From the sequence record OX638288: 64,000 nucleotides of DNA; one strand, 5' to 3'. Origin of the DNA: Escherichia phage UP19. Positions 4,789-5,481 of the stretch are shown here, piece by piece (the stretch's first letter is position 1; each line of letters begins with the position of its first letter). Below the pieces are notes generated by a model. It saw nothing but the letters and a program-made list of their open reading frames with translations, searched no databases and had not been told where the DNA came from. Position numbers and translations under genes: made by a program.

Positions 4789-5026
4789 ACAAACCGTTGA
4801 ACAGAAACTGCAGTCTGAAATCGTTATCCTGAAATCTCGTATCCTTGATACTCAGGACCATGCACAGCGTGTTAAAGCTGATTGTGACCTTCTTACCAAA
4901 GTACTTGGTGAGATTGCTGCAGTAGTTGGCGTTACCGGTGATTCTGTTAAAATCGAAGACCTGGTTGAAGCTGTTAAAGCCCTGGTTCCAGAAGCTTCTG
5001 ACGAAGAATATTCTGACGAAGAATAA
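4781..5026 (+). CDS. 57A: tail fiber assembly chaperone gp57A
   Basis: 81 aa [25 protein letters not shown]...; like T4 gp57A; acidic C-terminus. Confidence 0.85.
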
Positions 5027-5481
5027 TGAAAACTGAAGATTTTGCTCAAGGTCTATACGTTGCTGCAAAATTCTCTGAATTGACTTTAGATGCGCTGGAA
5101 AATCTTCAGCGCACTTTAAAGGTTCCTAATCCGGTTCCTCGTGAAAAATTCCATTCTACAATCTGCTATTCAAGAGTCAACGTTCCATACACCGTTGCAT
5201 CCGGAAGTTTTGAAGTTGCTTCGACAGGACATCTTGAAGTGTGGAAACATGGTGATTCTCCCGTCTTGGTACTGGTTCTCGATTCAGAGTATCTTAAATG
5301 CCGCCATCAGTATGCTCGTACCTTAGGTGCTACGCACGATTTCGATGATTATACCCCTCATATCACATTGTCTTATAATGTAGGACCTCTTACCTTTAGT
5401 GGAGATGTCCAGATTCCTGTCGTTTTAGATAGAGAATATAAAGAACCCTTGAAGCTCGACTGGGCCGAGGATTTAAAGTGA
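5026..5481 (+). CDS. 57B: gp57B, 2H-phosphoesterase fold; Acb1-like anti-CBASS cyclic-nucleotide phosphodiesterase
   Basis: 151 aa; two H-x-T/S motifs (HSTICY, HITLSY); immediately after 57A as in T4. Confidence 0.7.

Follow-up and report, generated by a model that had tools for sequence, protein, structure and literature searches.

acb1 (gene 57B) of Escherichia phage UP19, a Dhakavirus ortholog of the anti-CBASS nuclease gene of phage T4

Results

Genes at the 57B locus

We analyzed 64,000 nucleotides of DNA from Escherichia phage UP19 (sequence record OX638288), referred to here as the window. The window is from a Dhakavirus genome of the JS98/IME08/IME281 group. In a megablast search with positions 4027-6300, the matches to IME281 (vB_EcoM_IME281) and EcWhh-1 were at ~97.7% identity, and those to WG01 and IME08 were at 93-95%.

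We found that the genes around 57B are arranged as in T4. Gene 1 (dNMP kinase; 4027-4788, + strand; Pfam DNMK, E=1.1e-89) serves as a syntenic anchor. The tail-fiber chaperone gene 57A (4781-5026, + strand; Pfam GP57, E=1.7e-28) lies directly upstream of acb1 (gene 57B; 5026-5481, + strand), which encodes a protein of 151 aa, a putative 2H-type cyclic-oligonucleotide phosphodiesterase. Downstream, also on the + strand, are a 69-aa ORF (5478-5687), an Ip8-like internal virion protein gene (5766-5990) and an Ip9-like internal head protein gene (5992-6264). These are followed, in the T4-like manner, by trna.4, trna.3, trna.2 and three tRNAs. Judged from the annotations of T4, IME08 and IME281, the order 4-2-3-1-57A-57B-ip-trna.4-trna.3-trna.2-tRNAs is that of T4, in which acb1 has the same position between 57A and the internal-protein genes. 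The immediate downstream neighbor is different: ipI in T4, and in the window the 69-aa ORF, which has an internal-protein-type N-terminus.

The acb1 ORF extends from an ATG at 5026 to a TGA at 5479-5481, and the reading frame is full-length, without a premature stop. Its start overlaps the 57A stop (TAATG) and its stop overlaps the GTG start of the next ORF (GTGA, within AAGTGA). We compared acb1 with its ortholog in IME08: of the codons that differ, 14 do so synonymously and 2 non-synonymously (dN=0.0057, dS=0.150, dN/dS ~0.04). The low dN/dS indicates that acb1 is a real gene under strong purifying selection. In IME08, the 57B CDS (4982-5440) is annotated from an ATA, one codon upstream of the ATG.

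The 2H motifs

The first-pass annotation of this DNA had described the ORF directly after 57A as carrying the motifs HSTICY and HITLSY about 70 residues apart. This was borne out; the spacing is 69 residues, from residue 43 to residue 112. The first motif, H43-S-T45-I-C-Y (5152-5169, + strand), is equivalent to H44/T46 of T4, and the second, H112-I-T114-L-S-Y (5359-5376, + strand), is equivalent to T4 H113/T115. They are the only two matches to H-x-[TS] in the protein, which contains six histidines.

The number of motifs by itself carries little weight, because two loose HxT/S motifs were present in 20% of shuffled Acb1 proteins (20,000 composition-preserving shuffles). For a stricter shuffle test, we used the H-h-T/S-h context, the pattern typical of 2H enzymes. 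A pair of H-[ILVSTAM]-[TS]-[ILVFM] motifs located 50-100 residues apart was found in only 0.11% of 20,000 shuffles.

Identity of the 57B product

We found that the product of 57B matches the Acb1 family over its length. The Pfam profile for Acb1 (PF23474) matched with E=8.8e-59 and 197.8 bits (cut-off 27), and the match was end to end, with residues 8-149 of gp57B covering profile positions 1-144 of 144. T4 Acb1 (gp57B, NP_049750.1) and the window protein are identical at 128 of 151 positions (85%) in a gap-free alignment. At the N-terminus, the window protein lacks one residue relative to T4 Acb1, so that each of its residue numbers is the T4 number minus 1. The best match in the PDB was Acb1 from Erwinia phage FBB1 (7T26, apo, and 7T27, with a 3'3'-cGAMP analog), with E=4.2e-59 and 66% identity over residues 9-148. 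Thus, alignment with characterized Acb1 proteins, proposed as a check in the first-pass annotation, was unambiguous for both T4 and FBB1.

All nine functional residues known from T4 Acb1 (Y12, H44, T46, W74, F107, H113, T115, E141, W147) are kept in the window protein, as Y11, H43, T45, W73, F106, H112, T114, E140 and W146. The catalytic tetrad H43/T45/H112/T114 aligns with the corresponding residues of both T4 and FBB1. The base-stacking aromatics (Y11, W73, F106, W146) and the glutamate that contacts adenine N6 (E140) are all present and, like the tetrad, identical to those of T4. The C-terminal lid, placed by alignment at residues 144-151 (5455-5478, + strand) and including the base-stacking W146, is nearly identical to that of T4 (LDWAEDLK vs. 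LDWADDLK in T4). Most of the 23 substitutions that separate the window protein from T4 Acb1 lie clear of the residues that the structure paper names. FBB1 Acb1 shares both HxT motifs and a C-terminal DREY-E-L-W segment with the window protein. It differs by a one-residue insertion after the position equivalent to W73, and by having F and Y where the window protein and T4 have W73 and F106; both positions are still aromatic.

A 2H fold is predicted for the window protein from its 66% identity over 140 residues to 7T26, a structure for which this fold has been described. A single-sequence AlphaFold2 model had a mean pLDDT of 43.6 and a pTM of 0.32, too low for use.

We conclude, with a probability of roughly 95%, that the ORF is the Dhakavirus ortholog of T4 acb1 (57B) and encodes a small 2H phosphodiesterase, predicted to be metal-independent and to act against CBASS. 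By analogy with the experiments on T4 and FBB1, the window protein would share the enzymatic activity, substrates and anti-CBASS phenotype of those enzymes. The gene is a textbook ortholog of a characterized anti-CBASS nuclease that is already known. The earlier suggestion that the phage carries an anti-CBASS factor is supported by the alignment and by the Pfam Acb1 match, both of which point to such a factor.

Distribution and naming of acb1

The window protein is 100% identical to that of Escherichia phage Esco_phi_B-01, 99% identical to that of IME08, and 98.7% identical to that of ESCO10. Identity to the proteins of Tequatrovirus phages is ~85%. Homologs were found in 1471 phage records, reaching as far as T4-type phages of Acinetobacter, Aeromonas and Vibrio at 35-45% identity.

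The orthologs are labeled 'RNA ligase' in RefSeq, as is PHROG 755, and among the tblastn matches listed, only PQ871103 and PV833086 carry an anti-CBASS protein name. The label would fit a LigT-type 2'-5' RNA ligase or RNA 2',3'-cyclic phosphodiesterase working on the ends of RNA, such as an enzyme of tRNA repair beside the phage RNA ligases. The window protein does match PHROG 755 (E=2e-66), and acb1 is near the phage tRNA cluster. LigT and Acb1 both belong to the 2H superfamily; LigT enzymes are likewise small alpha/beta proteins with two H-x-T/S motifs, and there was a weak Pfam match to 2_5_RNA_ligase2 (PF13563, E=0.028). However, that match was partial (residues 61-122) and scored 14.9 bits, below the cut-off of 27, compared to 197.8 bits for the Acb1 profile, and the name 'RNA ligase' goes back to the 2H motifs. 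In the literature that we encountered, rather than in a dedicated search, we met no ligase experiment for this family. In contrast, the T4 ortholog acts on cyclic oligonucleotides: it was found as the enzyme that degrades 3'3'-cGAMP, and lysates of the delta-acb1 mutant lose this activity, with normal growth of the mutant in hosts without CBASS (PMC9117128). Furthermore, the cGAMP-contacting residues of the crystal structure are all conserved in the window protein. We consider an RNA ligase highly improbable and rejected it because of the LigT score below threshold and the T4 experiments. The gene should be labeled 'anti-CBASS protein Acb1' and not 'RNA ligase'.

Predicted function of the window Acb1

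The properties of T4 Acb1 have been described in detail. Hobbs et al. (2022, PMC9117128) used activity-guided fractionation to show that T4 57B is the 3'3'-cGAMP-degrading enzyme, which they named Acb1; the statement in the first-pass annotation that T4 Acb1 is the 57B product was right (PMC9117128, NP_049750.1). The enzyme adopts the 2H phosphoesterase fold, and its catalytic tetrad is of the HxT/HxT type (H44, T46, H113, T115). Y12, W74, F107 and W147 stack on the bases, E141 contacts adenine N6, and residues 145-152 form a C-terminal lid that shuts over the bound ligand (PMC9117128). Deletion of residues 145-152 abolished the effect of T4 Acb1 in vivo in a Panoptes assay (10.1101/2025.08.21.671373). 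Hydrolysis is metal-independent, and cyclic di- and trinucleotides are substrates; cGG, cA4 and 3'2'-cGAMP are not cleaved (PMC9117128). A 2025 preprint added 2'3'-c-di-AMP to the substrates (10.1101/2025.08.21.671373). Besides T4 acb1, nine further homologs were tested and all were active (9/9). In T4 infection, Acb1 activity sets in at ~15 min; degradation of 3'3'-cGAMP was gone from lysates of T4 delta-acb1. The mutant grew normally without CBASS, indicating that acb1 is dispensable there, and its plating on CBASS hosts was reduced more than 300-fold (PMC9117128).

If the window Acb1 works in the same way, the cyclic nucleotide would be held in a U-shaped pocket, with Y11, W73, F106 and W146 stacking on the bases, E140 reading adenine N6, and the lid (residues 144-151) shutting over the ligand. 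The adenosine would be strained, leading to attack of its 2'-OH on the 3'-5' bond, catalyzed by the H43/T45/H112/T114 tetrad. A 2',3'-cyclic phosphate intermediate would then give a linear product ending in a 3'-phosphate, for example GpAp. With the second messenger destroyed, CBASS effectors would stay inactive, as probably would type III CRISPR effectors that depend on cA3, and the infected cell would therefore not abort the infection.

A shift in substrate range relative to T4 Acb1 is possible, since 23 of the 151 residues differ; it might be small. A relative with a different range is PDE-9 (PDB 9Q2G/9Q2Y, deposited as 'Anti-CBASS protein Acb1'), a member of the same 2H group assigned to structural group 3. 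PDE-9 also cleaves 3'3'-cGAMP, but it cleaves 2'3'-c-di-AMP poorly and does not trigger Panoptes (10.1101/2025.08.21.671373). The lid of PDE-9 is N-terminal, whereas that of Acb1 is C-terminal, and the similarity between PDE-9 and the window protein was marginal (E=0.0045).

Acb1 can also be a disadvantage to the phage: the Panoptes guard is triggered when the enzyme destroys decoy nucleotides (PMC13577387; 10.1101/2025.08.21.671373). The acb1 gene of phage Bas43 contains a nonsense mutation, and in Bas35, phages that escaped Panoptes had point mutations in acb1 (PMC13577387). The window gene, in contrast to that of Bas43, has no premature stop. An ortholog whose activity has been lost or narrowed, as guards such as Panoptes that fire on decoy removal might select, is exceedingly improbable here: acb1 has been inactivated under Panoptes pressure in Bas43 and Bas35, PDE-9 avoids 2'3'-c-di-AMP, and 15% of the window residues differ from T4, but other Dhakavirus isolates encode proteins 98.7-100% identical to that of the window, and a decayed or re-specialized Acb1 is unlikely given the intact full-length frame, the conservation of all catalytic, stacking and lid residues, and a dN/dS (~0.04 vs. 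IME08) that indicates continuing selection for function.

Expression of acb1

Co-transcription of acb1 with 57A and translational coupling of the two genes are probable, given the stop/start overlap and the lack of a convincing promoter anywhere from gene 1 to acb1. A scan for sigma-70 promoters gave 22 sites, with 18.5 expected by chance, so that the total carries no information, and none directly upstream of acb1 was convincing. There was no + strand match to a MotA-box middle promoter within 3000-5026. The nearest upstream + strand match to the T4 late-promoter consensus, TATAAATA, was at 2044-2051; coordinates carried over from the IME281 annotation place it ~27 nt upstream of gene 4. No other + strand TATAAATA was present between 2052 and 8519, and no terminator-like site on the + strand was found before 6999. 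A long late transcript of 4-2-3-1-57A-57B may be made from this locus; it would fit both the TATAAATA site and the ~15-min onset of T4 Acb1 activity.

Two near-identical promoter-like sites of the form TTTACA-N16/17-TACTAT, each with an upstream TG, are on the + strand at 5701-5728, directly before the Ip8-like gene, and at 6269-6297, directly before trna.4. In sequence, the two sites resemble early promoters of T4. Were they active, the ip genes would have a promoter of their own, separate from that of acb1.

Internal-protein-type ORFs downstream of acb1

We found that the three ORFs downstream of acb1 share an MK[ST]Y[KQ]EF start. The Ip8-like gene (PHROG 8765, E=1.5e-26) begins with MKTYQEFITEA, and the Ip9-like gene (PHROG 7673, E=2.6e-55), the counterpart of which is annotated Ip9 in IME08, begins with MKTYQEFIAES. 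The 69-aa ORF matches PHROG 23867 (E=2.6e-42), which has a function-less label. A start of this type is also found in T4 IPI (MKTFKEF) and in annotated internal-protein genes, and presumably it is the capsid-targeting sequence of the T4 internal proteins.

In contrast to the shared N-terminus, none of the three ORFs (0/3) matched the Pfam family IPI_T4 (PF11634), under conditions in which T4 IPI itself matched with E=7e-54. Searches of the window by tblastn with T4 IPI or IPII gave no match at E<1e-3. Because neither search gave a match, an anti-defense role for these neighbors comes from analogy with T4, and we regard it as plausible. In T4, the adjacency of 57B (acb1) and ipI, which encodes an anti-GmrSD inhibitor, is the argument from which an anti-defense island has already been proposed (PMC9117128). 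The first-pass annotation had suggested a compact anti-defense island after gene 1. This suggestion found only partial support: acb1 lies beside internal-protein-type genes, but none of the three neighbors could be assigned to the IPI family.

The 69-aa ORF, which is restricted to a lineage and coupled to acb1, is the only item at the locus that we consider mildly open. It was present in 28 phage records, mostly from Dhakavirus with a few from Citrobacter and Erwinia phages, and among the annotated records listed, the match touches or adjoins 57B or internal-protein genes. In IME281 the ORF is annotated as hypothetical, and in IME08 it is absent from the annotation. Its pairwise match to T4 IPI was weak (34% over 56 aa, with the shared N-terminus included), and a PDB search gave matches at chance level, all with E>0.02. 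It is conceivable, although doubtful, that the product is a packaged and injected anti-restriction protein of new specificity. If so, an inhibitor delivered by injection and a nuclease expressed to degrade the signal, Acb1, would be encoded side by side.

Other, possibly defense-related genes in the window

The window also contains a homolog of T4 Vs.4 (19907-20185, + strand) that is 67% identical to the T4 protein. It matched Pfam Acb2_Tad1_hairpin (E=3.6e-16) and PDB 7UQ2 ('Vs.4'; E=1.2e-30). We take T4 Vs.4 to be the cyclic-oligonucleotide sponge Acb2. If it is, CBASS signals would face a sponge as well as a nuclease in this phage, as in T4.

With Acb1 and the Vs.4/Acb2 homolog, this Dhakavirus is predicted to resist CBASS signaling through cGAMP or cAAA. 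It is also predicted to be sensitive to Panoptes-type guards that sense when cyclic nucleotides are depleted (PMC13577387). These predictions are relevant to host range and to selecting phages for therapy. Beyond the correct annotation of acb1, the significance is small.

Near Vs.4 is the gene for DenV (endonuclease V; 17960-18373, + strand), with 99.3% protein identity to T4 DenV. The nearby regB, vs.4 and tk.4 are 54-67% identical to their T4 counterparts. The denV segment looks like a recent exchange between the Tequatrovirus and Dhakavirus lineages. The two ORFs that flank denV (17472-17903 and 18419-18718, both + strand) carry an MKTY[KQ]EF N-terminus, which in the ORF at 17472-17903 begins at an internal methionine of the ORF as listed. 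The arrangement is analogous to the position of ipII/ipIII in T4. T4 IPII gave no match at E<1e-3 in the window, the denV-flanking ORFs included.

The homolog of T4 Tk.4 (21612-22064, + strand; 54% identical to the T4 protein) contains a Macro domain (PF01661, E=8.7e-07). Macro domains remove ADP-ribose, and the Tk.4 homolog could be a further counter-defense candidate.
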